Shown here: piece after piece, positions 12,676 through 64,000 of the stretch
Numbering within the stretch: the stretch's first letter is position 1
How the letters are laid out: every line of letters starts with the position of its first letter
Source: Amoebophrya sp. A120
Lineage: Eukaryota > Protista > Dinoflagellata
Direction: 5' to 3'
DNA length: 64,000 bases
Assembly: GCA_905178155.1 (NCBI GenBank)
Contig: CAJINV010000005.1
Coordinates: 7,308,989-7,372,988 of the forward strand
Made by a program: the position numbers and the translations under genes
Notes under the pieces: model-generated
Database searches by the model: none
What the model saw: the letters and a program-made list of their open reading frames with translations, nothing else
What the model was told of the DNA's origin: nothing

Positions 12676-12820
12676 TATCCACAGTAAATTTCCCGTACAT
12701 GTGAAACTAAAAATGCGGTCTCGGCATGATCCTAATTTTTTTAGCATGACAATTGTTACACTGCAAATTGGTGAAATTTGTGATGCATCTTGTACATGTA
12801 CGGGAAATTTGTATTGCATA
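12676..12820. mobile_element. Introner in the putative 5' UTR of the GTPase gene
   Basis: AAAAC|TAT...ATA|AAAAC; inverted repeat AAATTTCCCGTACATGT / ACATGTACGGGAAATTT. Confidence 0.8.
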
Positions 12821-12829
12821 AAAACCAAG

Positions 12830-15800
12830 ATGGCCTACTCGCAGACCCTTTCCGGGTCCGACCGGGGGCTGCACATCGTTTTTCTCGGAGACCTATGCAT
12901 TGCAAAAGTATCGTACTCGTATAAATGCATTACAAATTTCCCTGGCATGAGAAATAAAATTTGTAATGCTGATTTGTAATGCATAATTGCAGTACGAGTA
13001 CGATGCTTTTGCACAGGATAAGACCCAGAGATAGGCCAGTCGACACTGCTGAAGTATTTCAGAAAGGAAACTCCCGTATCAAGTGTAAAAATGTCTGGGT
13101 CTGGAAGAATCATGCTGCTTCTGCATGACACAGGAGGTCTGGCATGGAAGCTCTAGCGTCACAGGTTTCGAGAAGCTTCCGCAATGCCGAATCCGCATGA
13201 CAAATCCCCCACTTTGGTGACAGAAAGTGAGCAGCTTTTGCTGCCTATGCATCAGAGATTTTTGTGTGTTCTGAAATGCGCATCACAAGTTACATCCTTC
13301 CAGACCCTGACATTTTTGCGCTTGATATCCCGGCACGGTAAACAACGTCGGAGTGGCGACCCCGTTATGGATTGCAAAAGTTAAAGTATCGTACTGGTAC
13401 TAGTAGTGCTTCGCATTACAAATTCACTCAGCATGACAAATGGAATTGGTCATGCTGTTTTACCTTGGAATGGGGATTTGTAATGCATGACTGCGATTAC
13501 TACGAGAAGTGCGATACTTTTGCACAGGATACCCGTCCAACCGCAACGAGATCTTGGATTTCAGCAAGCACCGCGGCCAGCAGCACGAAGCAGGTATCCT
13601 GTGAAAAAACGTCCTCAGCCTAGGTTTGTCATGCGAATCTGCATGCCTGAAATATTTCTCATGCGCAGTAAAGCCATGCGAAGCATTTTCTAATGCAGGA
13701 GCTGTCTGGGAGCTACTACTTGTAATGCTCGAATCAGGATAAGTGTTAGTGGACTTGAGAACACTCGCACACACTTACACACGTTTGCTCCACTGAGCTC
13801 GTTATCAACAGCAGTTCAATGAATTCTCTCAATTGCAAGCAAGCAAGCAAGTGACGCAAGTCTCTTGCTGCGTTACATCCTGTAGGTTCAATTCATCCAA
13901 ATTCAGCGCATTCATATGGACCGAACCTGGTCAGAGTCAAGTGGCAAAACAGCATGGGAGTCCACTCCTCAACCTGCTCAGATTGGTGCTCGACCCTGGC
14001 GGGAGTCAAGTCCCCCAGGGCGACCATTCTGAACGTCTGGACCGAGCTGAGTCCATTCATTTCACTACGATCCTGATGGCTTTGCCTTCGTAGTATTTGG
14101 GGGATTCGCGGAACATGGTGAAGAGTTTCCTTTAGGATCTAGATAGATTCTGACCATTTCCCTAAGGATCTAGCTAGTTCAGGTCATTCAGAGCTGTCAT
14201 TTCATTGGGAACAGGCGTCATTTGGGGCGATCGTGTTACGTGTGTGCGGGATCGATTTCCATGACCAACACCCCTCCTCAATCGCTGCGGCGGTGGTGCT
14301 AATCTGGATAGCGTCCTACCACACTCCCCTCCTGAGCGCGCTGTGGTGAACTAGCTATCCCCTCTAGAAACCAAAATAAATCGAATAAGTATAGCCTACT
14401 TTAGCCTTGCCCTTGTGATTCCCCTCTATAAACGTGTCTAAATCATCCTCATCGTCAGAGGAGTCACAAATAAAAGACTTAGGGTCGGGGTTATCAATAT
14501 GGTGCAAGAGTAAGCGTCTCTGCGGCACACTACACTCGAGCTTCGTGAGACCGTCTGCCTTCATTAGGTAGGTCGGGCAGAACATGATCTGGCTCGCTGC
14601 GTCTCTCACGCGGAGATATCGCAGTGCGTAGTGCCTCGATTTCGGTTTGTTGTCTGTGCTCTTAGCTGTAGTTATCGCGGACTGGTTGTCGATCCACAAT
14701 ATGGCATCATCCAGGGAGGGAGATAAGCCATTCTGCTTTTCCACCATGACAGTGGGTAGAGGTTTGAAGAACTCTGTAAAGTCATTCTGCTCGCTCAGCA
14801 CAATAGTGTCGGAAGCAGCTATATACTCCGCCTCCGCCGTGGAGTACGCCCTCACGGTCTGCCGGTTGCTACGCCAACAGATCGGGAAGCCGCGGAAGTA
14901 CATAATGCTACCACTAGTGCTTCGCATGGTCTTGCAACAGTTCGCAAAACTAGCATCCGAAAACAGATTCACATCAGGCAAGTCTCTCCCGTCGGGCAGT
15001 AGCTTGCTGTAGATTCTGTTGAATTCTTCCTCAATTTCCGGACTATACGACAGACCCTGCTCCTTCGTTGTCAATAGATACTTCAGAATCTTCTTACAGG
15101 CGTTTACGACAGGCCGAGTCGCCGGCTTGCCCACGTATCTGGCGACAGTGGCAACCGGGACAACAATGTCTACCCTGCAAGTGGTTGCAGCCCACTGCAG
15201 AGAGCCAACGACCTCTCGAAGGGGAAAACCTTCAATAACTTTAGCTCCTTCAACTTCTTTAGCGAGTTCAGACTCATCGAAGTTTGGCGAGTGGACCGGC
15301 TTGCCCGCTTCTGAGACGTGGAATTTCTTACAAATCTTGGATATGTACTCTGTCATCACGATCCTAACGGTTCGTAGATTCCAGTTGTAGTACACTATTG
15401 ACCCTAGGAAGTCAAACTTCTTGGACACAGAGTTAAACTCCGGAACAAGCTCGACGTCGATCATGCGCCCCTTGACGTGGTGCAAGATCTCCGCAAGTTC
15501 TCCAGCCAACTCGGACCCAGTCGGAGGACCTGTGATAAGATTATCGTCGACATACACTGCCAACTTCAGAAACTTCCCAGGGTGTTCCAAGCTCGGTTTC
15601 TTCCACAGACCTGGCGCAGAGGGACAGGGTTCCCAACCTAGCTTGGTCAGTACTTCCTCATACTTCTTATACCAGAGCCTGGGGGCGTCTTTCAAGCCGT
15701 AAAGCGCTTTCTTGAGCTTGACGATCTCCACGCCGTGCTTCTTCGCCCAGATGGGTGGCAAGCGGCAGAAGACGTCGCGATCAAGTAAGGCATTGAGAAA

Positions 15801-18800
15801 CGCACTATCAAGGTCGAACGGGATCACATCATCACCGTCTGCGGCTGCAGCGGCTAGAAGTAACCTGTTAGCGGCATGGGACACAACAGGAGCGAAAGTG
15901 TCCAGCTCGCCCGAACGATCTAGATTACCGAGTACTACTGCTCGCGCTTTCTTCGTACCGTCACGCTTCTCGGTAAGAAGGATAGCAATAGGCAAAACCT
16001 GCTTTGCGGTCGCTAGCTCCTCGTCAGTAGCTGGCTCCCACACTTTATAGGCTTCAAGTCTACAATCTTCCTTGTTGGTTGCTGCGTTCCATTCGACTGA
16101 GTCTTTGCAACGAGCAGGATCCAACTTGGCCGATGTAGTCAAGTAACACTGGACGTCGAGGAATTCCTCACCTTCCTCGCGATCATCCTGTGCTGCTATT
16201 GCTGCGGCAAAGGCACTAGCGTCCTTTCTCAATTCTGCGAGCTCTTTCTTAGTACGTCTCACGCGCTTTGTCTTGTCCTTTCTCCCTTTGGGACGACCAC
16301 GACCTCGCGGCTTGGAGTTGCGGTTGCCAGCCACAATCCTTGCCGGAGACGGGCTCGCCTTTCTTGGACTAGATAAGCTGCTGTGAGTGGGGTGATCGTC
16401 CAGATTCCCCTCCTCAGGTTTAACACCTTCAGGCTCGGGATCTATCTGGCCCGGATCATCTTCCCTATCCAGACTTTCAACTACCAACGTCTCTTCAGGA
16501 CCGTCAGGCTGCCTACCAGTGTGCTCCGAGACATCCACCCCCAGCCGGTGCTCAGCCCTTTTGATCAGACCGACACACGGGAGAGATGGCGCACACGACG
16601 CTCCACTAGGTAGGGCCTCGATTGCGTCACACTCGACATAGATACCTTTGGAGTTAGGAACTAGGTCTTCAATATTCTTCACGAGGTACTCCTCACGGAA
16701 CTTGACGTCGATGGTAGAATACTCCATCCAACGATGTCCCGCGGCGGACCGGCCGTCCGTGACATACGTCCCAACCCGCCAGCCCGAAGACTTAGGACAA
16801 AGGCCGAGAAATACACCACGACGAAATGGCGCGGACAGCTTTGGAGCAACCACTTCTACTCCCCCCTCAGGAGCTTCATGAGCTTCGCCTTTCTTGACTT
16901 GTTCACGAAAATAAACGAGACAACCAAAACGCCTTAGCATCCTTGTGCCAACTTTCGAGCTATTTCTTCCAGTTCTCTCATCCAGAATTTCTGCAGGAGT
17001 CTTTCCGTCGTACTCAGGCATTTTGCTATACTTATGCGGAAGGCGGTCCCAGCATGCTGCAGCGTACTCGACCGAGTAGCACCACAGACGCTTGTCCACG
17101 TTCACCAACATCGCACGCACAGCGCCGAATATGGTCCGCATAAAGCGTTCGCAGGTTCCGTTCTGCTCTGGGTTGTAGGGAACCGTAGGAGCATCACCGA
17201 CCCGCAGCGATTGCATGACCTTGGTCATGGAGTCACTGCCCAGAGCTGGCTCATTGTCCCTACGGACGAACCATGCCACTTTGTCCTCGAGGGTCAAAGC
17301 GTAGTTCTGGCGAATGCCTTTTATTACTTCTTCCAAAACCTCAACGCAGTCACTTTTCAGCTTAAGAGGGACACAGAAACACTTCTTGATGGCATCACAG
17401 ATGACCACAAGCACGCAGGTGCGTGACCGAATCGATACAGGTTTAATACCTACCGCGAAGTCCATCGCGAGTAGTTTCAATGGCTCAGGTTTGTAATTAC
17501 TAGTGTCTCGCTCCTTTGCGTGAGAGCTTCTCGCGCCTTTCGCTTTGTCGCATTCTCAGTCAGAGGGCCCCGGGGCCATTTTGTGGGTTAAAAAATGGCT
17601 ATTTTTTTTCTGATTTCGAAAAAGCGCGGTCGCTATGGGCCGCCTTAGCGAAGGGGCCGGCGCCGTATTCTTCGCCGGCCAGTTGGTGGCCCTTTGGCCC
17701 GCCCGTCGGTCTGGCCTTTTTCTTCGAAGGACCCCCGCCCGCTCTGATTTTTGTTGGTCCGCGCGCGTTGACGGCGCCGCCCTGTTGGTTTGTCTCCCCC
17801 AAGAATAGATTGCAGCTCGTTTGACAGGTCCAGGCGGTATCTTGGGCGCTTTTTTTCTATTGCAGCCGCAATAAGTTCTCAGCCCGGGGCCACAGGCCGG
17901 TTAGCGAAGATTTTTCGAAGGATCAGTGTGTTCAGAAGCTACCTGCAGCGCGCTTCGTAGTGTTTACTCTCATTGTTCCATCGTGTTGCAAATATATTTT
18001 TCCGGGTCCTTTTCCCCTTTTGTTCGTCGTGTGGTCGAAGCCAGTTTTGGTATCAATGTATGCTTTTCGCACACCGCCCCCCATAGAGTCGTTCTTTATC
18101 AGATTATATAATTTGTTTGTGAGTTTTCCATACGACGATGGTGGACGTCGACGGGAACATGCTCACACTTCCGTTCTGCGGTTTTGATCTACCTCTGGAA
18201 AATTACCGGGACATGGTCACACTTCCGCGAATTTCTCGCTGTGCGCGGGGGCGGTATCTCAAGTGGTTTGCGGCTGGTTTGGCAAAGATGGTGGGCAACA
18301 GCAGTGCGGCAGCACTTATCAAAACGAAATCGGAGGCGCAGGTAGGTCTGGAGTTCGAAGCCTGCTGGCGGCGGTTAAAGCTCGCATATCAACAGTGCGA
18401 GCTCGACATGATAAAGTTGCGGCTATCGCGTGCAGCACCGGCGAAGGGAATAGTAGAGCACATTGAGTTCGATGGCACACCGCTCCGCTGCTCGGTGAAA
18501 GGGGTGCACCACACTGGCGATTGTTTCTGCGTTCTCCAGGGCTTCGCGTTTTGGGATGATCGCGACAGCGTTGCTGCGGACAAAGTGCGCGCACAATTCC
18601 GCTTCTCGGAGAGACCGATGGTGCGGCTCTGGCGGTCGCTAGATTTGACGCACATGACCAATGGGCACACCGACGTGCGGACTTATCACGAACTCGATCA
18701 GCTGGAGACGGCCCGAGTATCTTGTGCGAGAGCCCCCGTGTCGGATTTGTCATGCGCAAAAGATGTCACGCAGGTGTCCTCCGAGAGGATATCTGATCAT

Positions 18801-21800
18801 GGTTTTTATTTCGTCCTTCATCATGCGGAGTTCTGTCATGCGTAATTTCCGAGCGTTGTTGTGGATAGTGTGTGTTTTTTCTATATCCAGTTGCCCCCTG
18901 GTCAACAGATGCACAGCATGACAAATCCGACACGGGGTGTTTTTTCGGTGTGATGGGCCGAGTTGATCGAACAAGCGTGTCCTCCTGGCTACGATGTCAA
19001 CTCCAGATTTTTCACTTTGACAAAATACACCGGCGATGGCGCTACTGCCGGCGTCTTGCGGCACTACGTCGGGCAGAGGCATGAACCCGAATTCATCCGG
19101 GCGGGAGGTTCTCTTGCTGGGGAGATGAGCCTGTGGATTTCGGACGAGTGTGCGGGGCACGGATTTCACGGCGGGGTTGGGGACGGTGTGGAAGTCTTTC
19201 TTTCCGATCACGACGCACTCGAGGACTTCAAAAAAGTCTGTCGCAGTTTTCGCAGATCAACCGACCAGCTTCAGAGTGGGGTAGTTCAGTGGTTGGAGGC
19301 GACGTACATGCAGATGCCGCTGTATCGCCTGCAAAACAAGCTGTGCCTAATCTGTCATGCTGTTTTTGGTATTTAGAATTAAAATTGCATGCCTGTCGTA
19401 TGTCCGCCCTAAGTTCCCGGGTATTTTCACCTTTCCTGCACATCCCGTACCACGCTGACTTCGATAGAAGCATTACAGATTAGGCTGCAGTGTTGATTTT
19501 GCATCTCATAACCCTGCACCCGAGGAAAAGGAGAGATACGAGCTTGCAGTGCGAACACTGCTACCGGAGCAGGACGGTCCAGATTCCCTAGCGCTTGCGG
19601 AGGAATTAATCAAGCTGGAACTTCGGTGGGAGTATCGTGTGCAAAAGTATCTTGCTCGTGCAAAGTGCATTCATGCATGACGTAGAGCTGCCATCTTTCT
19701 CTTCATGTGCATGACAGATCTCGCACTACGTATTCTTCAAAAATTTTATCAAGACTTACTCTGCACTTGTGGGGAGCTTTTGCAATGCATATTTCGGGCG
19801 ACTTTTTATTCGGGGCAGCCGCAATGGACCAGACCGATGCCGTGGCGGACCTTGTAGTGCGCCTGAACTTCCCGGAGGTACAGTTCGGGAGATTCGGGAA
19901 CAGCGTAAGCGCAATGCGGCGGTGCGCGGTTTCGTGCCTTGTCGGCCTTCTTCATCTCGGGCGGTTTATCGTTGCCCACTGCCCGCGGGTCGGATTCCTG
20001 AAGCAGGCCCAGGGCCTCAACCTCCCCGGCGACGAATTCATTTCTGCGGCCTGGGGTATTGGCCTCGGGCTTGGCGTCTTTGAAAAGTGCGAGAAGAAGT
20101 TGCTGAAGAGTGACAACATCGCTCGACTACATGAAATCGAGACGGAGTTTCTCGCCGATTTGGAGACCTTCCGTTGCGCAAACTGGTGGTGTATTTTACA
20201 GGTCTCCGGCCTCAAGGAAGACAAGGTTGCCGCGCTCGTCCAAAATATTGGGTACGCGATAGAAGCAGCAGCGGTGAGCTTTTCCGAGTTCCCCTTCCGC
20301 CGGCTGCGGGTGGCGCCGTACAGCGTGCTGCGGCCGCAAGAGAGGTTTAACCTGCGCGCGTTCCTCGAGCGTGTGGCAGCACTTCCGGAGGACGAGTGTG
20401 ATTCGGGGTTTACGTGGAAGCTCAAATCCCTACAGAACACGGCCCCCACCATCCTGGACCAGTGTTCCGGGTCATTAAAGGACGTCTGCGAACTTGTTCT
20501 GACCATGCCGCAGGCGATATATTACTGCGAGAGGACCCACAAGTTCTCGAGTAGGATGAACAAAGGTCGATGCAGTTTCCCCGTTGTCAATGAGTCCGCC
20601 TGGAATGAACGCTTCGCCCAGTGTAGTCATCTCCTCGCCCCAACCGTGCAACAGCTTCCAGCGGGCCCGGCTTCCATCGAGGAGGCCTGGAAAGAGAGCG
20701 GGGCGCACCAGGTCCGTACGTCTTCAATGTTCTGGTCGGAGTTCGCTCTACCGGCCGGCACAACTCTTGAAAACCAGGAAAAACATATGGTGGAAACAAT
20801 GCCGACCTTCCTCTACGCCAAACATGACCCGGACCGGAGGGCGCGACTGGTGCGGAAAGTTGTGGCGCACCGGGAGACCCTGCGCACCGCAGCGGTGGAG
20901 AAAATGGGAAAACTCCTGTCGCGGAAGGAGAAGATACAGAGCGATGAGGTGGACAAGATCACGCAATTTAAGATCACCAACAGCTGCAATCTCACTTCAC
21001 AAATCACGGACAAGCACCTTCTGGACGCGATCAACGGGCTCCGGGGGCAGGGCGTCGACAATCTCGCCAAGAGTGCGTGTCTGCAGCTGCCACTCACCGA
21101 CGAGTTCGAAGCGCGGGTAGTATCTGCTGCGGAAGAACTCCAGTTCTCCCTATCACTAGAGTGAGAATGTCTGATCCTTGGGCCAGAACAGAACTACGCC
21201 GATGCTTAGGTAGAATTTCGCTAGTAGCTTTTCTGCATGACAAACACAAAGACCAACCGCCCCGCTTTCGTAGTTCTGTCTGGGCACCGGGGGCAGGTTT
21301 TTTTGCAAGCCCATATCAGTTGCCCTACTTCCGCCTCCCGGACCTGGATTACCGTGTCACCGAGCTGCTGCGGCGTTTTGCCGGTGGGGAGCAGATACGG
21401 GGGGGACTTCTTGTCGTCCGCCCTGTCAGTCTGGACGAGTGGAATTTGGAAGCGGAGGTGGAAATATATCAGATTGCGCTTGCAGTGAAGCGGCCTTATT
21501 TTCTCGGTGGTGTGATGCTTGAGGCGCAGCAGGGACACCAGGACGACTCCGGCCTGTACTGGAAAACAAACGACTTTGCCGAGTTTACCACCTTTGAAGA
21601 CAGCAGCGAGATCTATTTCGTTCCGCCCGCGCACGTCCAGGCAGTTTCTGTTGCCTGTGTCGGGCTCCCCTTCCCGCTGACTGCACACAGCGTCCCGTTC
21701 TTTCCCGGGGCAGAGCGTCTCGCTGGGGGCCGTGTCAAGAAGAGGGAGCAGGTGGAAAACCGTTCGGGGCACCAGGCAGAGAGGCGGGTGCGGGAGTTGA

Positions 21801-31909: not shown

Positions 31910-33329
31910 TATTGATGGTTGATTTTTTTCTCGTAGTTGCTGCAAATACAAGCGCACGTCAATGAGATGCAAATAACAACTTCAACCGTGCATAGAATTG
32001 GAAATGGATATCTTCATGTCTGAGCGTGACAGATGAATGAATTTCTGTTCCCGCAGCTTCGAGGGAACCAATGGCAGGATCATGTTGTCATGACGGGCCA
32101 GGTATCTTGTAGAGTTGTACTCCGAGAAGTAGTAGAACTTGCACAACATCACACCAAACATACAATTTCAGGCGCATCTTCCTCCGTCGCGGTAACAGAA
32201 GGGGAGGCTTCCAAATTCGCAAACTATCCTGTTGCACACTTTGGATCAACGTCCCTGAGGTCTGGTGGAATTGCATCAGTGCTAGATGTATGATTCGGAA
32301 GCATGTCATGATAGCTCGTGATATGATGTTGGCAAAAACCACGTGCGTTAAACATTGCGGTCGTCTAGCATGTCAAAAGAAAAAAGGAAAACCGTTTGCA
32401 GTAGAGGATATTAGAAATTCGATCCGACACCGACTGTAAAAGAACAAGTTGACCGGAAGATCTAAGTCAAGACCGCTGGTCCCGCCATTTGTTTGCAATC
32501 GATAAACCCGAGGCGGAAGCCATCAGTTACCTGGAGTGCTCCCTCGCAGCGGATCTTATCCCATCAAAATGAATTTCTTCAACAGCCACCTCCATCAAGT
32601 TCAAAGCAGAAGAGTTGTAGAACCAGAACCCCTCCGTTTTGCGTACTGTGGTCATGATGGCCATACCTAGAGATAAAAAAAAAGCTGCAAAAGGTGGATT
32701 TATCCCGCCGTCCAGGAGTGCATGCTGCACACAAAGTTGAGTGGCGCTATCAGAATCTTGTGGACACGTGAATCCATTTCTAGTATTTGTGCCTTGATGG
32801 ACGGTGGAATGTTTTTTTCCAACCGCGATAAGCTCGGACGAAGCGCTAGACGCCCTGAGGACGAAAATCTTGAGCACGGCGAAAGAGTATATTAGTGCCT
32901 TCGCTTTATTTTGTTTCAACTTCTTGTTTTGTTAGTTCTAGTTGTGCCGGCCGCGGAGGCTGCGTCTGCTTGTTCCTGTTGGTCTTTTCATGCACGAGAA
33001 AATGAAAAACAAGATTGAAAATGAATATTGAAAATCAGGTCCTACCTATTCCGATGGCAGCAGAAGAGAATAAAGCGGTCCCTGCGGGGGGAATCCGACC
33101 AAGCGGTGGACTATCCAGGGAAAAAACAGTGCTAGAAGTTGAAGTTGTGTGAATGGTTCTCTATTACAGTGCATGTAAGACTACAGTGACACTCACTCTT
33201 ATCAGATGGCCGCACACTAGCGCTCATGGGAAATAAAATTTCAGTTTCACGCAGTATCACGGAAAGCGAAAAACAAGTTTTTTTTTGTCATGCTGCAGAC
33301 CGAATTTGTAAATGCAAGTCAAAGTAAAC

Positions 33330-48887: not shown

Positions 48888-48950
48888 GAATAAATTATGA
48901 ACCACGCTTCGATCTTCGACGAAGATCGAAGCGTGGTTCATAATTTATTC
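48888..48950. repeat. Perfect 63-bp palindrome (31-bp arms, 1-nt centre)
   Basis: GAATAAATTATGAACCACGCTTCGATCTTCG-A-CGAAGATCGAAGCGTGGTTCATAATTTATTC. Confidence 0.95.
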
Positions 48951-52500: not shown

Positions 52501-55500
52501 CAACTTCTTTTTGTCGAAACCATGAAACCGATGGTGGTCGCTTCATCTGCCCCGCGGACACTCATCGCCCCTACGACCCAGTTATCCTGGTACGTGACAC
52601 CAGCTCCCGCTCGCCCTCATCGGTCATGACGCAGGAGGAAGAAAAAATTTGAAGAAAAAGATAAGAGCCGCGAACGTTGCCTAGTAAAAGAGGAGGGTAT
52701 AGAAGATGATTTGTAGTCTTGAAACCTCTGGTGCATGGTTTTGACATTTGCATGATTTTGCATTTATGCTCGAATTTAATACTTTTTTCCTTTGAAGAAG
52801 AGGTAGAAGTATATCCCCCCCGGTTTTAGTCCCACCCCTTCCGAGGAATTGCTTGGCGCGCGGCTTCGAGCCAGTCCTCACTTGAGAGCTTTGGCGTGGC
52901 TCGCTTCGAAACAGTCTGACGCATCGGTTAGAGTAGAGTAAAAGATCGCCCCGAAGAGGGTCTTCGGGGTGATCTCACTCTTCACCCGCCCGGCCGAGTG
53001 GGTGAGAGATGAGACGGGTCCGCCTTTTTCATGTCGCCGCGCGAGCGATCTCGATTTATTTCTCGAGCCTGTTCTTGTCGCGGAAGGTTTTCGCCTGAAG
53101 AGGCAGCCGGCGGAGTAAGTAATATTTCTTCCTTTGAACGACGAATGAGGGAGAGGGGAATGGCGGGAATCTTTCCAAGATGATATCTACGCAAGACGAC
53201 CACCCGTGCCCGTTGCCGGGGGGCTGCACTTCCGACGAATGCTGCACCGCATTAGTGCCAGAATACTTCTGCAAAAACATTGATGACAGTGTCATGGGGA
53301 TGCTGGAGTGTGACGCTACTGGTACCGATCCTACATCGCGCGACCACATGCTGTGGCTTTGGATTGGGATAGAACCCCGCGACGGCCGCCCCGACTGTAA
53401 AAGTAGCGATGACACAGAGAGGGCGAGGTGCAACCAGCAGAACTGCTGTGTCGAAAAGAAAACGTGCTGGAAGTCGACCGGCTGGCGTGCTAATCCTGCA
53501 GTGCAGTTCGACATCGCATCATGTTCATCTATTTCGCTTCAAGCAGGTCTGAGACACTCCGAGGACACCAATGGCGCACAAGATGCCGTGTGCTTAACGC
53601 AGTACGACGGACCTGGTGCAATTTTTGGGTGGTGCGAGCCAGATCTCTGTTGCACACGGGACCTGTGCAGCAACAAACCCGACGACGACACGGCTGATGC
53701 CGATATGGTGATGACCGAGCCGGATCACCCCGATTCTCCCATCGATTGCACTTTGATATGGTGGCGACACCCTGGGGCCTCTTCACTGACTTCAATTTCG
53801 TAGGGTTTCATTTGCTTGCATCAAAAATAAACAAAAATCGATTGCAAATAGAAGTATGTAACTATTACTATTTATTATTATACTATAATTATGAATATGA
53901 ACTGAGTCTACTTCTACTGGAGGCTTATCTACTAGTACTTCTCTCCAGGTGGTCATGACTCAGTGCTGGAGCGGTTCCGCGTGGCCGAGAAGGCTCGCCA
54001 TGGCTCTTACGCGTTCAAAAATAATCCACCTCTGTTGCAATTTATTTGTTTGAAAGCTTCCCACGTGGGGTTGTCATAGCTATTTAAGTGCAACCAGGAT
54101 CTTTGTGCGTACGGCGCAGCAGGCACAGGCACAACGAAGGCCACCTCGGCTACCAAATGCGACGCCTTCTGTAGCAGCGTCAAAGACGCGAGGAGCGGCA
54201 GACGAATTTTTGCGGACTTGGAGGGGTCTTCAATCGAGTGCAAGGACTACGCGGATAAACCTAAACGGGGTTGGTGCAGTGTGGAGGACTGCGGGTGCAA
54301 ATGCAGCACGGAGAACGGATACTCTCTCGGGTCCACCCACGACAACTTTCCCGCTGGCCCTGCGTTCCTTCTCTCGGACTGCAGACGAGGAACACCAATA
54401 CGGGATGATGAACCCTCGACGTTTTGCAGCCTCCCGGCACCTATCGAAGGTAGATATGTCCGGGTCTGGGAGATCACGAAAAATTGTCACGCTGATATGG
54501 CATGATCCTTAACTCTGTATTGCGTGGCCACGGACAGCCTCTCTCGCCTGTCATGCAAAAACGCAGTTTCTGTTTCTGATGCGGGATGCTCAACTCAGAA
54601 ACACCAGCGCCGAAAAAATTGTCATGCTTGGCAGGCGCAGGAGCACATCGTAGTGTGCTCACTATTCCCTTCTTTGCATCACAAGTTTCCTTTTCCAGAC
54701 GGAGACATATTTGCACTGGATAGCACCTCTCATGGTTGATGTGGCGAAGGAAGTCCAGTTGAAGCTGTGGCGCGGTTCAGTGCAGACACCAGGGACGTCG
54801 TGGGATGAAGTCGAGTTGGCGGCACAATCTCCTACAGAAAACGGGAACTGGGTTGCACAAGGTCTTAACGACGAGTGGGCTGCTGAGGAAAGGCGACGCA
54901 CAGCAATGGCGCCCCTGACCGACGAGACGAGCGCTGGTTTTGAAGTTAAGCGTGGCTACACGCTTGCTTCTGATGCGGTGTATGACCTGCAAAGAGCGAC
55001 AGTCGTGGAGACCAAAGAAGCATACCGGTGCTATTGCGAGGAAAAACCCCCCCTCCCCATATTGAACACGAAATTTGTGATGCTGTATTTGTGTTGTACA
55101 CAGGTGATGACTTGCTGGAGAGCACTGCAGGCCCATACCAAGTGTGAGTAGAGAGATTTTGGCCTAGGCGCTTAGGATGAAAAGCATCCACACTGCTGCA
55201 GCAGGCCCAAAAGCATGACAAATCGCCTGCACAATGCGGCGGCTGTCTGCGGAGTTGCCTTCTTGCAAGACAGACGCGATCTGTGACCGCAATGCAGCAT
55301 CACAAATTTCCAAAAATATACCTTTGCAGTATGGGGAGGCGGGGGGATCTTTCGTATTGATAGGCGCCCCTGGTTCCAGATCGACCTGGGGTCTACCAAA
55401 CTCGTCACCAGTGTGCACCTCTTATGGCGCTCTCACTCAAATCGGTTACATTCTCTATCTCTGCTGTTACGATGAATTTGTCGTGATGCAACACTAAGTA

Positions 55501-58500
55501 CCTTAAGCCGCCAGATGATCGAGCTGCTTCGCATGACAAATTTCCGAACAAGAGGTAAACATCGTCTAAATCTGTGCCAAAGCTGTGATGCGAAAGCAGC
55601 AAGCTTGGCCCTTTCACTTTTGCTGTTCTTGCATCGCAAATCCATGTAACAGCTGAGAGTGTATTAACGTTTGTGAACGCCATACCTCTTCACCTCGGAT
55701 TGGGTGGGGCGCTTGGGGCCGTTGTTTTTCAACACGGGAACTGGAGACCCTTGGGACGCACAAGCGTACCCAAAGCTGGAGGATGCTTCAGCGGATGCTT
55801 CGAATGGTCCAGTTGACGCGGGATTTCGAGTTCTGCTAGTCGCAGCAAAAGCGTCGTCCAGGCACCACTCAGAGTGGAATTTGGACGACGCGTGTCCAGA
55901 CCCAGAACTCTCCGCCGACGTGACGGTCTGCGAGGACCAGATCATCAAATATGCCGGGGGTGCCGGACGGTATCAGGATAGAAAAAAACCCTTGTTCCCA
56001 TTTTTTTATTCAAATTGAAATCTGTCATGCGGGATTTGTGATGTATGAATATAGAAGTACTTAAACCATGACAAGCCAGCTCTGGCTTGCAATTATAGGG
56101 GCTGCAGAAAGAGCCTGAGCCTCGTTAGTAGGGATGTTGCAAGACAGGGACGCTGACCTTCTTTGAAGACAGAGACGATTATTTGCGACCACGGATCAGC
56201 GTTGCTGCAAATCTTCAGCTGCAATGAGCCTCTTCAGAATGGGACGCGGAGGGATTTTCCATGACGATACACCCAATCGCTTCACGCCAGTACGCGACGA
56301 CAAAATTCCGGGGATCAAAGTGCCCGAGTCTCTCGATGGTATGGATTACAACCTGGTCGGCGCCAGGATCAACTGCAACGGCCAGCTCGGGCGCTATGTA
56401 GTAATCGAGCTTCCGGGGGCGCAGACGAGCCAGCGACGAAAGTTCGGGCTGCACGAAGTGCAGGTGTACGCAAAATTCGTGGGCGAGGCACAAACGTTCG
56501 CGAAACTAACGCCGGGCGCGGCGTCCGCTTCGAGCTACCACACGAACACGGAGTCTGCGAATGCGGGTGAGATTGCTACACACCATATCATTTGTAAAAG
56601 CGTTCCCACCCCAGACTTGTCATGCAGAATGGCATGCCTAAAAAAAATGTCTCTCATGCGCCGCAGGGCCCATCCGTTCGGTCCTTAGTAGATAGTCCCG
56701 CAACGGGGTTCGGCTAAAGTCGGCCACTTGTATGCTAGGCGTTGGGTTACCCGGTCGGCAGAGCCGATCCACTGATGTCCATGATGCCGCAGCCCCATGA
56801 GAGATGACATTTTCTAATCGCTATCTAGAAGTCCTCTGTGATGCTAGAATCTGGATGAGGTACGTACTAGTCGATTTGTGATGCGTCTGCACTAGACTAC
56901 GAGCCCAGATTTCTCATGCGAAACAGCCGAAGCTTGTGGAGTTGTGTTGCGAGATCCCCATCTTGACTCTGGGGCGGGGACGTTTTTACACCGGATACGC
57001 CGTCAAGTGGCACAGAGACTGGTCGATCGATATTACACCTCACTTGCGCAGACCCAGAGAGAATTCGACGTTGACTCCAACGGTGCTCCTGTTCCTGCAC
57101 TACTATACGGTAATAATAAGCACAGCGTGGCGCAACGGTGCCCCTGGATGCAGATCGACCTGGGGTCGTCGCTATGCAATGCAAAAGTATCGTGCTAGTA
57201 TGAATTGCGTTACAAATTAGCCCAGCATGATTACAGATTTACTTTATCTTGAGAAATAAGACATTTGTAATGCATAAATGCAACGACTACGAGTGCGATA
57301 CATTTGCCCAGGATAGTTGCAGACCGTTCGCAACGTGCAGCTGTTTTCCTCCTCGTGGCAGCAACGGCTGGTGTTCCTGTTTTTCAAAACCGCAAAAGAC
57401 GGCGACGGGACGTTTAGCGGGGCCATCGCGAATGGTCGGGTCGACTCCGGCTTTCGGGTGATGGTGACGTCGAACTCACGGCATACGCGCACGTCCGCGG
57501 CACCGAGCGCCCTGGCCGGCGACGCGTGCCCCCCGATCCCGAACGACGAATATCCTGATGACCACCTGTGCGAGACCGTGACGTACAATGGGGGGGAAGG
57601 GTTCCGGAGGTTTACGGAGGTCCAGAACGAGGACGGCTCGCCGATGATCGTCAAGGACGGGCCAGTGGGAGCCCCGTCCACCGATTACAGGGTGCTCAAG
57701 GCCGTCATAAACTGCAACAACGCCGTCGGCCAGTACGTCGTCATCGACTTGCCATATGGGAGTGCACAACTACTCCCCCTCCCCCTCATGTGTGATGTAA
57801 ATCACCCAATCCACGCCAGCAGGGCCAGGTCTTGAAGCACTGTTTGTGTTTGCATGGCAAGTTTATAAAGAAATGGGACGCCCTGCCCTTAGTCTTCCAA
57901 CATGACAAGTTCTGGCCGCTCAAATACCATTTTGATTTTTACGCTCCTGTGCAGATTTGTCCTGCGAAGCCTGCGCTATTGCTGACGGCTGTATCTTCGC
58001 TGTTCATGGCATACAAATGACGAAGAGGGGGCGTTGTGCACTCTCATACGCCAGGCGTGAATGACGATGACGTCGACGGCACTCCGGATCTGGAGACCCG
58101 GCGGAGACTTGGTCTCCTGGAAGTCAAGGTCGGGGTGCAGGCGGAGCTCGTACGCATTGCAATCGTGTCTGGGTCAGGAAGGAGTGGAACTTGTGGCGCT
58201 GTCACTCGGTTCCAGATGAAAAATCTGTACTATTGCATTATGACCAGCAAAAGGAATCCAGTCTGTGCTACGCGGAGAGAGCATGCCTCATGCGGAAGAG
58301 GAGACTACAGCAGGCCCGCTAAAAATCTGTGATGCTAGGTCATGCAATACAGGCGTCATGGGTCGTCATGTAAAATTTGCATGCCAAGCCTTGCACAAAA
58401 CCAGACCCAGGCATATTTGCAGTGGATAGCTCGCGAGCACCTGCAGAAGTTTCGTGGAGGACGTCTGGGGCGGGTCGATGGCCAACTTCTGCTACGATCC

Positions 58501-61500
58501 GCTCCGGACGTATGCGGTGCCGGAGACGTATGGAAGCGTCAGGTTTGAAATCGTCAAAGTTGAAACAATTTGCAATGCATAAAATGCATGACCCGAGGCA
58601 CGTGCGTTGCAGAGCAGGCAAGTGAGGCCGATTGTGAGCCTGTTTGGGGTTACAGCTCGAGCTGCTAAAGTAGCATGGGAAAATCACTCTTCTACTTCTT
58701 TGCCTAAACAGCATGACAAACTGGAATTAGGGACCACCGAAATTTGTCATGCGCTACTTGGAAACTGGGCTCCAACTGGCATCCATTTTATGCATGACAA
58801 ATTATTTCAACTTTGTCGATTTCAACTCTGACACATCCATAAGACGCGGAAAAACGCCCTGCCGGAGATCGACACGACGGCCGAGGTATGCACAGCAAAA
58901 GCGTCGCGCCCGTAGTAATCGTAGGCGCGCAGAAGTGCGGGGCTAGTTCTCAAAGCGGGCCCGCGCTACGGGTCGCGACACGACCTGTAGCGCTGGGCTG
59001 ATTTTTTTGCAGCGAGGCTCTCAGGAAATTAGTGCGAGCGTGGTGGTGGTGCTTTTGCATTGCATACGCGGATACCGTGGAGGGGCACTATCGCCGATGG
59101 TGTTGTGTCGAGACCTGCAAGAAGGCCGTGACCGTCCTCAACGAATGCATGCGAAAGCCTCAGAATGGAAATTCTCAAAGAGGAAATAATTTGCGATGCA
59201 TGGAATGCGACGCAAAAAAGACTGTATTGCAGAGGACCCAATGGAGGCCGACTATTGTCCTGCTAGGGGTGAATAATTGGAGTGCTGCTTAGCATGAGAG
59301 AAGGGCACCCCTGCTTTGCCTTAACCTGCAACATGACAGACATGCTTTAAGTGCCAGGGAAATTTGTCATGCGCCGACTACAGATGCCGCGTCAACTAGA
59401 GTCGTTTTTTTGCATCACAAATTGTTTCCACTTTGAGGATTTCCAACCTGAGGCTTTCATAATGCACCGAACGAAGGGACATCGTGGAGGCCTTCGGGGG
59501 CACCTATCCCCAGGACGAGAGCAAGATCGACACCTACGGGGGGACGAGAGTTGAGCCGAAAGGCGAGGACGCCATCTGCTTCGGGGGATGTAGCCCCACG
59601 ACTTGCTGCAGAGTCCAGCACTATGTGGGCGGCACCGGGAACTTCTTCGTCGTGCGTATGGAAGCGTCAGGTTTGAAATCGTCAAAGTTGAAATAATTTG
59701 CAATGCATAAAACGCATGACCCGAGGACCGTGCGTTGCAAAGCAGGCAAATGAGGCCGATTGTAAGCCTGTTTGGGGTTACAGGTCGAGCTGCTAAAGTA
59801 GCATGAGAAAATCGCTCTTCTTTGCCTAAGCATCATGACAGAGGGGATTTAGGGACCGCCGCAATTTGTCTTGCACCACTTAGGAACTGGGTTCCAACTG
59901 GCATCCATTTTATGCTTGATGCGACGCCCGACAACAAACCGGTAGCCATTGTGGGCGACCTCTTCCAGAACGATCCAACCGAACTGCCTCAGGCCTCTTG
60001 CTGGTTTAGTGGACTAGTAGTCCGCGTCACAGACTAGGCGCGGCGCAGCAACAAGGAGCTGCGCAGCGGCTCCATCCGTCACGCCCGCGCCTCGTTTTGG
60101 TCATGAGGTCGTGATGTACTGCTCCGGCGATTCATTCTCAGTTGCAACCTTCACACTCGCCGCTGGTTCTCAGGTTCTTGGCTTTCAAGAGAAAAATTCT
60201 CTCTCATATGTTTGCCGGAATCCCTAAACCGCATCGCAGGCTGGTTTCGTGCCTGCGGTGTCCGTAAGATTCCGAATAAAATCTACTTTGTACGCATGGG
60301 GCCAGCTGCAGGCTGCTGCTTCCTCATACATAGCAGTGAGCCTGGTCGGTCCCTGCACAGTTTGTGAGCGCTATAAGTTGGATCGTTGGCGAACGTTAAA
60401 CGTGCTCTGTTGGCGACAAGTATGGACCGCTGGCGAACGTTAAGCGCATGTTGGCGATAAGTTGGACTGTTTGCGAAAGTAAGGATAAGGAGGTGGCGTA
60501 AGTAGGATTATATATGTGCCCGAGGATGATGGTGATGGCTTCGGTCCGCCTGACTCCACGACCTGGTGGCCGAACCATCTGCGGCGAGGTGCCCTTACAG
60601 GTTGTGTAGTGGTTTCGCTTTCGGTCGGTTTAGCATGACAAATTATTTCAACTTTGTCGATTTCAACTCTGACACATCCATAGTGCGGGGTCTGATCCTA
60701 AAATCGACACTGTCGCACTGGCAGTATGATGCGTCCGAAACCACAGTGCTGGTCAAGATGCGGGAGCTGATGGAGGCGGTTTACCTTCCCGGCGGAGCGG
60801 AGCAACCGCCCGACGGGCAAGGCACGATGACCGTGCTGGAAGAAAGAGCGAAGCTCATCGCAGGAGGTGCCACACTGCGGAAAAAAGCCCGCGCGCTCGA
60901 CGACGCAGACGAGGAAGCCCCCACCGCCACGTGGAACGTGACCGCCTACACGTTCTATTTCAACACCGTGCTAATATCCTGTGCGAAAGTATCGCACTCG
61001 TAGTAAGTGCAACCATGTCCATGCATTACAGGTCTTTTTTTAAAGGCAAACCCGCATTACAAATTTTATCTCTCATGCTGAGAAAATTTGCCATGCATTT
61101 ATACGAGTGCGGTACTTTTGCAGTTCATAGCTAAACCCTGCGAACCAAATCAAGGCGCTCACGCCGGGCGAGCTGGTGGAAAGGATCAACAAGAAAATTG
61201 GATCCACCGCGGAGCTATCAAGTGCAAATATGTCTGCTTCGTCTGGAGGAAGCCTGTCGTGGCGCTCGAGTGTGCATGATTGAAATAACACTCGAATGCA
61301 GCCAAGCATAACGACTTCATCCCAGAACGCCTTCTCATACGCAGCCCGTGCGGAAAGCTGCGAATTTGTATGGACAAAAAGAGGCGTCGGCGACTTTTGT
61401 TGGTCATGCAATACTACAGAAGATTTGGATTTCACAGGAATGTGAGGCCAGCGTGACAAGTTCGAACGTTCCAGACCCAGACATATTTGCATTTGATAGG

Positions 61501-64000
61501 AGCTGCGGGCTACGAAGCGCGCGTTTTTTTCGCAGCCCGGGGAAGTCGGATATGGAGTTCTCAAATCGTTTACTTTCTCAACTGTTACAGGGATTTGCCA
61601 TGCAGAACTAGCACCTTACGCCATCAGACGATCAAGCTACTTCGCAGGACAAATCTCCGAAGGGGTAAACAGCATCTAAATCTGTGATGCGAAAGCAGCA
61701 AACTTGCCCCTTTGCCTGTTTCTGTTCTTGCATTACAAATTCGTGCAAAAACAGTTGAGAACGTAACGTTTGAGAACGTCATATCGGAACGGAATGGGTT
61801 GACAAACCCCCGGCGGAGACGCACATCCAAAACACCGTATCAAGTGCAAAAATGTCTGGGTCTGGAAGATTCTAGACTTGTGATGCTGTCTCTGGATTCG
61901 AAAAAAATTTGTATTGCCTGACCAGGAAGAGGAGCAGACTTTGTGTTCCGCGGAGATGGCGTTTGTCATGCGGAATAGGCATGAGGAAGCGCTCTATTAA
62001 AAATCTGTGATGCTAGGCCATGCTGCATTACAGGCATTATGTTTCATGTAAAATATGCATGACAAATCTTGCAATCTCCCAGACCCAGACATTTTTGCAT
62101 TTGATACACCGTGACACTGTCGAAGTGGGACAAGAATGAGAAATTGTGGTGGAAAATCGTCTGTGGTTGCATCGTCTTTCTGGTGATTCTTATGTACGTG
62201 TACGTCTGTTACCTGTATGAAATGCAAAAATGTCTGGGTCTGCAAACTTGTGATGCTAAAATGTGCATGATGAAAACACTTTCGAATGCAGTCTGGCATG
62301 AGAACTTCCCAAAACGCTTTCTCATAGGCAATCCGCATGAGAAGCTGCGTTTTTGCATGACAAAAGAGGCTGCGACTTTTGTTCGTTATGCAATACAGAT
62401 TTTCTAGGTATGGAAAGCTAGCATTACAAGTCCCAACCTTCCAGACCCAGACATTTTTACAATCCATAACCTGCACCCCTTGACGATGGCGCGGCTGGAG
62501 CGGGAAGAGAAAGAGCAGGAGATGGCGCAGGCGGCCTCCGATTGGGCGAGCCACTACAACGTGCAACAGGCGGACTATACGTCGGCGCAAGGGGGGCTCT
62601 TTGGCGTGACGCCGTCCGGCGGTTTGCCGAACAACCGGGGCACGCACGGGGGAGTGTGGGCCGGTCCTTCCTCTTTTCGCGGCACGGCGGCCGATATTCA
62701 AGTAGAGAAAAAAACTGTCTTGGTACAAGTGTAGCTGGCCTGGGAATGATCGTGGCTACAGCATATATAAATTTGCTCTGCATGACAGAGAAATTATGTT
62801 ATCCTGTCATGCGCCGCGCCTAGTATCAGTGAACGCACGTTCGTATGAAAGAAAGGAAGACTAGGACACTATGCCTGGCTTCTAGCATGACGAGTGATAT
62901 ATTGTGTGAGTACAACGTGCGTATCATTCATTACAGACTTACACCCGACGCACAGTTTATTTTTTTTTTTTGCATAGCGATAGCTGGCAGCGGGCAGCCG
63001 TCCTGGGGCGGACCAAGCTCCTTCGCCGGAATATGACACCCTCAGAATGGAAATCCTCAAAGTGGAAATAATTTGTGATGCATGAAATGCGACACCAAAA
63101 AGACTGTATTGCAGAGAACGCAATGGAGGCCGACTACGGTGCTTTACGGGTTCAGAATTGGGCCGGTGATTAGCATGAGAGAATGGCACCCCTTTGCCTG
63201 ACTAGCATGAGAGACACATTTTGAGTGCCCGGGAAATTTGTCATGCGCCGACTACAAATGGTGCTCCAACTGGACTCGTTTTTTTGCATTACAAATTATT
63301 TTCACTTTGAGGATTTCCAACCTGAGGCTTTCATACGGAACGGCTCGGGGCGGTGGAGGGGACTGGTCCTCGTGGAACGGGGCCGGACAGTACGGCAGCG
63401 GCGCCGGGTATGCGAGTGTCAGGACTGAAATTGACAAAGTTGAAATAACTTGTAATGCATAAAATCGATACCAGTTGGAAGCCAAATTTCCAAGCGGTGC
63501 GTGACAAAGTTCACAACCGTCTAGTACATCCAGTTTGTCATGCTGTTCGGGCACAGGAGAGTGCTTTTGTCATGCTCCTTTAGCAGCTCTATCCCAAACC
63601 CTAAATAGGCTCACAATCTCCTGCCTTGCTTGCCATCCCGGCAAGACAGGCACTTCATGCCTTGCATTTTATGCATGGCAAATCATTTCAACTTTGACGA
63701 TTTCAGTCCTGACACTCCCATACCGGGCAACAAGGAAGTTGGAACGGGCAGTGGGGCGGCGCCGGACAGTCTTGGGACGGTGGAGGCCACGGAATGGCGG
63801 GCGGCGCGAGGCAATGGGAGTGGGGCGGCAGTGGCGCCTCATATGGTGCAGGGTACACCAGTAACGGGCAACAAGCGCGTTGTATGGAAGGGGGTCAAAA
63901 ACGAAATCGGCAAGGTTGAAATATTCTGTCATGTTGCGACGTGTTGAAATGGTAGGACTCCTACCATTTAAGAAGAAGACCGGCACTCCGTGGTCCTCCT
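49555..64000 (+). CDS. Large multi-exon Cys-rich type I membrane protein with F5/8C / F-type-lectin-like domains (continues past window end; may be more than one gene)
   Basis: Signal-peptide-like MKRVFQSSLFLVVAV; repeated C-x-C...CC modules; PWMQIDLG, PWFQIDLG, INCNGQLGRYVVIELPG..LHEVQVY and INCNNAVGQYVVIDLP; TM-like LWWKIVCGCIVFLVILMYVYVCYL (~62144-62215); Gly/Trp-rich tail. Confidence 0.6.
58529..58841. mobile_element. Introner (TATGGAAGCGTCAGG family)
   Basis: AGACG|TATGGAAGCGTCAGG...CTGACACATCCATA|AGACG. Confidence 0.9.
59150..59461. mobile_element. Introner (CCTCAGAATGGAAAT family), left TAT altered to TGC
   Basis: ATGCA|TGCGAAAGCCTCAG...CTGAGGCTTTCATA|ATGCA; homologous to 63032-63335. 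Confidence 0.85.
59657..60682. mobile_element. Introner (TATGGAAGCGTCAGG family) carrying a ~710-bp internal insertion
   Basis: GTGCG|TAT...ATA|GTGCG; aligns with 58529-58841 apart from 59920-60632. Confidence 0.88.
60975..61129. mobile_element. Introner (GCAAAAGTATCG family)
   Basis: GCTAA|TATCCTGTGCGAAAGTATCGC...CTTTTGCAGTTCATA|GCTAA. Confidence 0.88.
61216..61498. mobile_element. Introner (CCAGACCCAGAC family)
   Basis: GGAGC|TATCAAGTGCAAATATGTCTG...CAGACATATTTGCATTTGATA|GGAGC. Confidence 0.9.
61551..61783. mobile_element. Introner
   Basis: TCGGA|TATGGAGTTCTCAAA...TTTGAGAACGTCATA|TCGGA; body similar to ~42930-43178 and ~55420-55684. Confidence 0.85.
61838..62106. mobile_element. Introner (CCAGACCCAGAC family)
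   Basis: CACCG|TATCAAGTGCAAAAATGTCTGGGTCTGG...CCAGACCCAGACATTTTTGCATTTGATA|CACCG. Confidence 0.92.
62216..62468. mobile_element. Introner (CCAGACCCAGAC family)
   Basis: ACCTG|TATGAAATGCAAAAATGTCTGGGTCTG...CAGACCCAGACATTTTTACAATCCATA|ACCTG. Confidence 0.9.
63032..63335. mobile_element. Introner (CCTCAGAATGGAAAT family)
   Basis: CGGAA|TATGACACCCTCAG...CTGAGGCTTTCATA|CGGAA. Confidence 0.9.
63409..63722. mobile_element. Introner (TATGGAAGCGTCAGG-related family)
   Basis: CCGGG|TATGCGAGTGTCAGGACTGAAAT...ATTTCAGTCCTGACACTCCCATA|CCGGG. Confidence 0.9.

Follow-up and report, generated by a model that had tools for sequence, protein, structure and literature searches.

Transposon-like introns without GT-AG ends in Amoebophrya sp. 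A120 share one cut register

The locus and its elements

The window analysed here is a stretch of 64,000 nt of the dinoflagellate Amoebophrya sp. A120 (assembly GCA_905178155.1, contig CAJINV010000005.1, positions 7,308,989-7,372,988, forward strand), and all positions given below are those of the window. It carries a series of transposon-like elements, bounded by TAT and ATA within terminal inverted repeats (TIRs) and by 5-bp direct repeats, which interrupt, among others, a Ras-like GTPase/leucine-rich repeat (LRR) gene and a cysteine-rich membrane-protein gene. These elements are the already described A120 introners, whose TAT ends and 5-bp repeats have been published (Farhat 2021), and we report here that a single cut register fits every junction that could be tested.

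In a strict scan, with thresholds on the TAT...ATA ends, the TIR and the 5-bp repeat, 32 matches were found from 12676 to 63722, compared with a mean of 0.87 expected by chance (30 third-order Markov simulations). One of them (44217-45689) joins the ends of different elements, and another (35351-38321) was not carried forward. Looser scans and protein mapping brought the total to 51 elements, the shortest measuring 127 bp and the longest 17.4 kb, with TAT (45), TAC (5) or TGC (1) at the left end and ATA at the right end of all 51, the latter being partly a search criterion for the 24 elements without protein or contig validation. A previous, sequence-only reading of this DNA, which had proposed more than 20 elements of five or more families, nearly all running from TAT to ATA, is thus borne out, with the correction that TAC is tolerated. 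By blast, five families take in 22 of 52 candidates, the remainder being singletons at that threshold, and family members occur in both orientations within the window. The perfect TIR of 29 bp that had been announced is present at 45542-45689 and is the longest, though perfect TIRs do not exceed 6 bp in 43 of the 51 elements. The two repeat copies agree at 5/5 positions in 24 elements, at 4/5 in 14, at 3/5 in 6 and at two or fewer in 7; all 16 repeats listed previously, as well as the mismatched pairs CATTT/TGTTT, GAACC/AAACC, CAGAA/TAGAA and GTCGC/GTTGC, are present, but a 5-bp repeat for each element is not universal, being perfect in only 24 of 51.

Across 60 ends, TAT is followed by G or C, and A occupies positions 11, 12 and 13 in 65, 67 and 94% of cases, a TAT-S-N6-AAA profile that agrees with the definition of A120 introner TIRs in section 11 of Farhat 2021. 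Given this fit and the A120-named host proteins, the early lead to Amoebophrya introners was right, while the novelty attached to it was set too high, since TAT ends and 5-bp repeats appear in Farhat 2021 and Gozashti 2025. An internal motif, TTGTNATGC, recurs 65 times, in either orientation, over 14,069 bp of element sequence and represents a candidate transposase or splicing-factor site; it occurs once in 6.2 kb of Copia sequence and not at all in five canonical introns, and is missing from 18 of 52 elements.

With regard to the host genes, three proteins (P0001, P0002 and P0004) are named Amoebophrya sp. A120 proteins, match at 100% identity and fit the window exon by exon. The intron of every listed element runs from the element start minus 1 to its end plus 4. 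Registers (r) count how many bases of the left repeat copy remain after removal; at r = 4, the left copy contributes four bases and the right copy one. The features of the Ras-LRR gene, including its 5' untranslated region (UTR), are as follows:

12676-12820, +, element in the 5' UTR of the Ras-LRR gene; repeat AAAAC; structure only
12830-43930, +, Ras-like GTPase and LRR host gene P0002; start codon 12830; 489 aa annotated, 523 open codons under the rule
12894-13020, +, introner; repeat AGACC; P0002 junction, registers 0-5
13077-13327, +, introner; repeat TCCCG; P0002 junction
13366-13531, +, introner; repeat CCCGT; P0002 junction
13595-31015, +, 17.4-kb introner with Copia and a 10.9-kb TIR element inside; repeat GCAGG; sole validated junction that is also GT...AG (13594-31019)
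26799-26948, +, element within the nested 10.9-kb element; repeat TCACG/TCGCG; structure only
31072-31387, +, introner; repeat GAGCA; P0002 junction
31436-31658, +, introner; repeat CATTT/TGTTT; P0002, registers 1-5
31902-32171, +, canonical intron GTAC...CAG
32225-32504, +, old introner; repeat CAAAC/AACCC; P0002, registers 4-5
32557-32830, +, old introner, repeat lost (0/5); P0002 permits only 32556-32834; weakest end duplex, -7.2 kcal/mol
32887-33038, +, canonical intron GTAT...CAG
33112-33348, +, introner; repeat TGGAC/TGAAC; P0002, registers 3-5
33395-33548, +, introner; repeat GCCTT; P0002 junction
33644-33861, +, canonical intron GTAC...CAG
33934-34111, +, introner with decayed repeat (2/5); P0002 permits only 33933-34115
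34164-34468, +, canonical intron GTAT...CAG with introner-like 5' end
34530-34800, +, introner starting TAC; P0002, registers 4-5
34835-35130, +, introner; repeat GTCCG/CTCCA; P0002, registers 1-4
35192-35541, +, introner starting TAC; P0002, registers 4-5
35605-35760, +, introner with 20-bp perfect TIR; repeat GCTGC; P0002
35829-42215, +, 6.4-kb introner with Copia inside; repeat GAACC/AAACC; structure and LRR frame
42220-42224, +, predicted 5-nt micro-exon between two introners; absent from the annotation; from the rule and LRR motifs
42226-42533, +, introner; repeat TTGAG/TCAAG; LRR frame
42623-42907, +, canonical intron GTAC...CAG
42932-43179, +, introner; repeat ATTTT/ACTTT; P0002, registers 2-5, in the annotation's shifted frame
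43262-43507, +, introner; repeat TCGAG/CCGAT; LRR frame
43544-43855, +, introner; repeat CCGTT; LRR frame

That removal restores the frame at GTPase, LRR and membrane-protein junctions, as proposed earlier, was confirmed, with the amendment that the GTPase and LRR exons form one gene, P0002. Its annotation appears frameshifted after residue 427, where the LRR frame is lost: the rule, with the predicted micro-exon, gives three LRR motifs in 96 residues, compared with none in 62 for the annotation. The start of the canonical intron 34164-34468 scores as an introner end, and this intron is possibly an introner that gained a canonical 3' end. The remainder of the window holds the following features:

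44217-44393, +, element; repeat CAGGA; structure only
45215-45494, +, element; repeat ACTGC; structure only
45542-45689, +, element with the 29-bp perfect TIR; repeat CAGAA/TAGAA; structure only
49622-49766, +, introner; repeat AGAAG/AGAAC; absent from X1 record 2, registers 0-4; contained in X5 contigs
50026-50345, +, introner starting TAC; repeat CCCTC/CCATC; skipped in X1 record 2, registers 3-5
50757-51102, +, introner starting TAC, repeat lost (1/5); P0004, registers 2-4; narrowed to register 4 by the X1 piece end at 50755
51418-51705, +, element; repeat GATCG/GATCA; structure only
51789-52039, +, element; repeat GACGG/GGCAG; structure only; spanned in X5
52583-53185, +, probable old introner; X1 3' edge at ATA+4; 5' end paired by hand
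53294-62637, +, host gene for a cysteine-rich membrane protein; P0001 extends over 53294-58149; the rule leaves 1,202 codons open
53757-54078, +, old introner, repeat lost (1/5); X1 record 3 fixes 53756-54082; P0001 consistent
54442-54722, +, introner; repeat GCACC; P0001 and X1 length
55032-55362, +, introner; repeat GGTGC/GGCGC; P0001, registers 3-5
55423-55684, +, introner; repeat CCTCT; P0001 junction
55971-56269, +, old introner; repeat GACGG/CACCC; X1 records 4 and 5 each fix 55970-56273
56586-56997, +, introner; repeat CACCA/CGCCG; P0001, registers 2-4
57173-57315, +, introner; repeat GTCGC/GTTGC; P0001 and X1 record 5, registers 3-5
57755-58048, +, introner; repeat TGCCA/CGCCA; P0001 and X1 record 6, registers 1-5
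58151-58428, +, element starting TAC; repeat GCTCG; open frame
58529-58841, +, element; repeat AGACG; open frame
58887-59066, +, element; repeat CGAGG/CGCGG; open frame
59150-59461, +, element starting TGC, exception to N-T-A; repeat ATGCA; open frame only
59657-60682, +, element with a 719-bp insertion; repeat GTGCG; open frame
60975-61129, +, element; repeat GCTAA; open frame
61216-61498, +, element; repeat GGAGC; open frame
61551-61783, +, element; repeat TCGGA; open frame
61838-62106, +, element; repeat CACCG; open frame
62216-62468, +, element; repeat ACCTG; open frame
63032-63335, +, element; repeat CGGAA; open frame
63409-63722, +, element; repeat CCGGG; open frame

P0001 is annotated as partial and ends at 58149, whereas under the rule its frame runs on into a single protein of 1,202 codons that has a hydrophobic stretch late in its sequence. 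A search of representative proteins with the downstream exon of this gene gave 0 matches, so that the junctions from 58151 to 62468 are placed by the frame only.

One cut register

At 27 junctions, the cut could be compared with an annotated protein or with contig edges, and registers 0, 1, 2, 3, 4 and 5 are compatible with 10, 13, 15, 19, 27 and 19 of them, respectively, 18 of the 27 being informative for the register. Register 4 alone is allowed at five junctions, fixed by the protein at 32557 and 33934 and by contig edges at 50757, 53757 and 55971, where the repeat copies match at 0, 2, 1, 1 and 2 of 5 positions, respectively. Since these uniquely placed cuts persist where the repeat is lost, the 5-bp repeat is an insertion scar and not a splice signal, and its inclusion in the splicing rule by the sequence-only reading is not supported.

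The intron thus reads N-TAY...ATA-NNNN, from one base before TAT or TAC to four bases after ATA, and this fits 27 of 27 testable junctions. T+2 and A+3 are found in all 27, +4 is T in 23 and C in 4, ATA occupies -7 to -5 in all 27, and the terminal bases are free. A GT...AG register is both available and allowed at one validated junction of the 27. All five canonical introns of the Ras-LRR gene start with GTAY, the same as the N-TAY core of the elements. Furthermore, the rule keeps the frame open over 523 codons in the Ras-LRR gene and 1,202 codons in the membrane-protein gene; the frame alone leaves the length ambiguous, given that removal of the element plus 2 or plus 8 nt also keeps it open.

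The legend of Fig. 3 in Farhat 2021 (PMC7789003) describes the splice position as variable and unknown, and all nine predominant A120 non-canonical classes in Table S4 of the same study have T in second position, which agrees with the fixed register. Some observations fit the rule less well. The Gozashti table lists GC and GA donors in A120 (family 3: 191 and 212 of 3,852), which the rule does not predict and which may reflect aligner placement within the repeat; in addition, element 59150 starts with A-TGC and L010:3401, in the comparison loci described below, with G-TGT, contrary to N-T-A. In the parts of the literature covered here, the fixed register, the dispensable repeat and the end polarity reported below were not found in print.

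Removal from RNA-like and retention in DNA-like contigs

The DNA-like contigs of run X5 show even depth over the region and span eight elements unbroken and unbranched, five of which are skipped in X1, whose contigs are RNA-like. X1 record 2 is 475 nt shorter, which corresponds to two elements plus 5 nt each, while records 3 and 5 are exactly as long as expected from the loss of each crossed element with 5 nt more and from a contig end at the parting of the spliced and unspliced paths. As paralogous elements had filled the joint tables, piece coordinates served to derive these cuts, on the assumption of 31-mer contigs and of pieces extended to their maximum, and five records agree under these assumptions. 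Unspliced forms occur in X1 records 4 and 6, at depths of 8.6 and 4.5 compared with 26-40 for spliced forms. The exons were not covered by the raw RNA runs X7 and X8, in which only partial matches to element-like sequence occurred. It weighs against this evidence that X1 is only guessed to be RNA, and that X1 and the annotation may share a source.

These data support the view that the elements descend from transposons and serve as introns with ends other than GT-AG, each being taken out together with 5 nt. The claim of non-canonical introns stands, 26 of 27 validated junctions having no allowed GT...AG register; use of canonical sites or plain retention, which would have spoken against it, is refuted for the validated junctions, although lower-depth unspliced paths exist. 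Somatic excision, for which a check on DNA had been suggested, is disfavoured by the unbroken passage of X5 contigs through eight elements.

Different constraints on the two ends

The comparison set consists of 150 loci (503 kb) from metagenome contigs, obtained by a pattern scan and containing the same element families as the window. Contigs dense in these families are present in a public metagenome collection, with about 500 stretches estimated for one pattern, and belong to an assembly other than the window's.

A transposon end is symmetric in DNA, so that neutral decay should strike both ends equally, but the observed changes do not. Among 276 elements of the loci, whose detection ignored TIR positions 1-4, 19 differ from TAT/ATA by one terminal change; these remained from 22 non-TAT/ATA candidates after three spurious pairings (L006:3245, L036:2957 and L040:3531) had been dropped before the count, and L001, a locus that switches strand, was oriented by hand. 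In gene orientation, third-base changes (TAC, TAG) are found eight times at the 5' end and once at the 3' end, whereas first- or second-base changes are found once at the 5' end and nine times at the 3' end (Fisher p = 0.001; p = 0.005 on the 13 variants with concordant codon score and open reading frame (ORF) length). The five TAC ends of the window all lie at the 5' end. The lone 3' third-base variant (L001:2873) is located in a repeat offering a canonical GT...AG, as 24 of 552 element-strand pairs do. Base identity is thus preserved at intron U+2 and A-7, whereas -5 and +4, with which they pair in the hairpin, drift. Either G or C is present at TIR position 4, with no covariation in 272 elements (G-C 74, C-C 72, C-G 66, G-G 60).

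The earlier idea that the TIR stem and the TAT/ATA ends together guide removal therefore survives for the ends, which guide the cut, but not for terminal pairing, in view of the polar unpaired variants and of position 4 without covariation. A longer TIR stem may contribute to removal. Several points count against such a reading of the ends: position 4 mostly pairs in the 27 window junctions (20 of 24 G/C cases); strand calls in the loci come from a codon model and a reading of translations, and splicing of the locus elements is assumed; a Pfam strand check supported 1 of 52 stretches (51 of the 71 listed plus one window exon); and codon score and ORF length disagree at 6 of the 19 variants.

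Proposed mechanism and alternatives

We think it rather probable that these introns would be removed by a U2-type spliceosome with relaxed checks of G+1 and AG, branching at A-7, the first A of ATA. This scheme starts from what was observed: insertion duplicates exactly 5 bases with no target preference, the element stays in the DNA, and RNA-like contigs and annotated proteins are without it and a further 5 nt. As four bases of the left copy and one of the right are kept, a fresh insertion restores the coding sequence exactly. The pattern is that of a cut measured from the element ends and not from the repeat, the two ends being differently constrained. The left end would mimic a donor, with N-T-A-Y in place of G-T-A-Y, and the right end would supply, at -7, the adenosine for branching, after which six bases would follow up to the 3' cut. 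With U1 missing, pairing of the TIRs into a hairpin probably assists in placing the two ends next to each other. The symmetry of TAT...ATA would let an insertion work in either direction, and one integrase-like transposase would move all families.

In the established structure of the spliceosome, U+2 and the branch adenosine sit within the catalytic core, and G+1 pairs with the last G, so that G+1 and this last G can be relaxed together. A120 is reported to possess nearly all spliceosomal proteins together with U2, U4, U5 and U6, U1 being undetected (PMC7789003), and an Amoebophrya with canonical introns has U1 (PMC12005148). In Yarrowia, a single base separates most branch motifs from the 3' motif, and such close branch points are described as splicing well (PMC13309789), a spacing that the six bases from A-7 to the cut resemble; Fritillaria indicates that a spliceosome can be retuned (PMC13326754). 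On the other side of the balance, out of 184 oriented elements only 75 have a YTNAY branch context upstream of A-7 at the 3' end, and the bias of orientation towards it is slight (48 vs 30, p = 0.054; in the window 8 vs 4, p = 0.39). Moreover, the spliceosome and the branch point are deduced from sequence constraint alone, and no transposase was found among the window ORFs and 25 long candidates in the loci.

A spliceosome-independent route, as proposed for euglenid and diplonemid introns, seems unlikely to us. Here, a structure-reading endonuclease would measure from the base of the TIR hairpin, leaving a 1-nt 5' and a 4-nt 3' overhang, and a ligase would join the exons, the intron being released as a linear or circular molecule. 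The fixed offsets do resemble a ruler, the two ends of each of the 27 validated elements pair into a duplex (-7 to -45 kcal/mol) and ends 17.4 kb apart are still joined, in a species with no U1 detected (PMC7789003); circles have been reported in Euglena (PMC11282704, PMC12621601). However, the TAT/ATA pairs are broken by uncompensated, transcription-polar variants, even if a sequence-reading endonuclease could still show polarity, and the 272 elements give no covariation at position 4. The weakest duplex (32557) is, furthermore, cut as precisely as the strongest, and the donor is the canonical GTAY minus its G.

Somewhat less likely again is a spliceosomal removal with the branch further upstream, in which a dedicated protein would read ATA or the internal TTGTNATGC repeats to set the 3' cut. 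The poor U2-pairing context around A-7 in most elements speaks for it, as do the enrichment of TTGTNATGC relative to Copia and canonical introns and the divergent U2AF paralogs that read non-canonical 3' ends in Fritillaria (PMC13326754). Yet A-7 is the only ATA base invariant at 3' ends without a canonical escape, and TTGTNATGC, absent from more than a third of the elements, occurs in both orientations, as a transposase site would.

Excision from DNA by a transposase, as for the internal eliminated sequences of ciliates, with transcripts made from a cleaned template, is very improbable. TIRs and a target duplication do make a transposase substrate, and loss of the element plus one repeat is what precise excision would produce, but the X5 contigs are unbranched, though contigs drop rare variants and low-level excision may escape them; removal is exact even where the repeat is gone, and end constraints follow the direction of transcription. 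Least credible of all is an artefact, with nearby canonical sites used or plain insertions in dead genes, for although one validated junction is GT...AG (13594-31019) and X1 records 4 and 6 contain unspliced forms at lower depth, the other 26 junctions offer no allowed GT...AG register and both long frames stay open.

The U2-type scheme with branching at A-7 can be taken one step further, with not quite even confidence. The A120 spliceosome would ignore both terminal dinucleotides, read only U+2/A+3 and a branch A seven bases from the end, and count six bases to the cut; the palindromic TAT...ATA end would be a donor on one strand and a branch site on the other, so that an insertion into any 5-mer, in either orientation, would be born a perfect intron. 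A25, whose non-canonical introns are TT-NN with repeats starting TTA (Farhat 2021, PMC7789003), would share the N-T-A code through different elements.

Insertion and the mobilising enzyme

Among 284 elements of at most 500 bp in the other loci, the perfect repeat is 5 bp long in 210, 4 bp in one and 6-9 bp in none, and the 5-bp target shows no base preference. This uniform 5-bp repeat is a transposase footprint common to all families. One mobilising enzyme for all families is plausible, as the sequence-only reading had assumed, considering the 5-bp repeats and the shared ends, although no such enzyme was found. Pfam searches of 16 window ORFs gave only Copia domains at meaningful scores, and 25 long TIR pairings in the loci included no autonomous copy, only two having repeats with 4-5 matches, neither with a transposase. 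An 815-bp TAT...ATA element with a perfect 5-bp repeat (L039:5650-6464) is close in size to family 38 of Gozashti (808-810 bp), a likeness of length only; it matches neither the Copia pol of the window nor a transposase.

Two Copia long terminal repeat retrotransposons (13744-30878 and 35971-42180), 96-99% identical, each lie within an introner and carry their own 5-bp duplications, ATAAG and ACAAG; the introns that host them, 17.4 and 6.4 kb long, still have TAT...ATA at their borders. Inside the first Copia, a 10.9-kb element (17555-28479) has inverted ends starting CTCAGTCAGAGGGCCC, a 4-bp duplication (CATT), its own introner and several long ORFs without Pfam match; for one of its ORFs (19686-21161), a feature-based comparison points only weakly to hAT-like transposases, the score of 0.85 falling short of the recognition level. 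This element was rejected as the mobiliser because of its other ends (CTCAG) and its 4-bp duplication.

Elsewhere in the window, the 719-bp insertion in element 59657 (59914-60632) has no match in the rest of the window or in the 150 loci. An exact 2,402-bp duplicate (4280-6681 and 6836-9237) flanks a run of N and is likely an assembly overlap. The ORFs at 1342-5724, which we presume to resemble a tyrosine-recombinase retroelement, gave no Pfam match. In the loci, the coding strand switches across an element with mismatched flanks (L001:1571-1797), indicating a misjoin or an inversion at an introner.

Comparison with known systems

The closest system is that of the A120 introners themselves, described with inverted repeats of TAT, 7 nt and AAA, direct repeats of 3-5 nt including a 5-bp example, non-canonical ends, and many families totalling 29,850 copies (Farhat 2021, PMC7789003). 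Organism and elements are the same, and host, TIR, repeat, non-GT-AG ends and families all correspond; in contrast to that description, the intact repeat is here always 5 bp, the cut is fixed and the repeat is dispensable. In Gozashti 2025 (PMC12130899), family 38 carries a '5-bp TSD, TA/TA termini' entry (TSD, target-site duplication) and a Ginger-like label, whereas the automated TSDs of the other families range from 2 to 6 bp with mixed splice sites, and no common register emerged from the 41 of its 58 A120 rows that were covered. Ginger DNA transposons are described with TGTNR termini, unlike the TAT[G/C] of the A120 elements, and with a 4-bp TSD, or 5 bp in TDD-4/5, with which the A120 repeat agrees in length only (PMC2836005). 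Ginger elements are also characterised by a Gypsy-integrase-like transposase; the 25 long candidates of the loci contained no autonomous copy.

The introns of Fritillaria borealis (PMC13326754, PMC11282704) are similarly derived from miniature inverted-repeat transposable elements with TIRs and TSDs and are handled there by a modified U2 spliceosome; however, their ends are mostly AG-AC or AG-AT and U1 is kept, whereas the A120 terminal bases are free and U1 is undetected. The non-conventional introns of euglenids and hemistasiids (PMC11282704, PMC12621601) share paired ends, a stem inside the cuts, a longer 3' overhang and TSD-like repeats. Their stem, CAG/CTG at +4 to +6 and -8 to -6 in euglenids (PMC11282704), differs from the A120 TAY at +2 to +4 and ATA at -7 to -5, and euglenid introns are released as circles, while the A120 TAY is a canonical donor core. 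Introners of Micromonas and Aureococcus (PMC11282704) are likewise non-autonomous DNA transposons whose TSD completes the intron and whose removal restores the coding sequence, but they need GY and a co-opted AG, so that only some targets work, whereas any 5-mer suffices in A120. Compared with U2-type introns, GT...AG is found at 1 of 27 junctions, and the invariant U+2 with a canonical-like donor core at 27 of 27.

The removal of about two thirds of A120 introns has been called unresolved since 2021, partly because the position of the cut is masked by the repeat. A fixed register accounts for the tolerance of tens of thousands of insertions made without target choice, corrects gene models (a missed 5-nt exon, which is predicted, and a gene annotated as partial) and leads to single-base predictions, namely a lariat joining +1 to A-7, or none. 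The elements are already known; the added rule, not found in print in the literature covered, makes the mechanism testable to the base.

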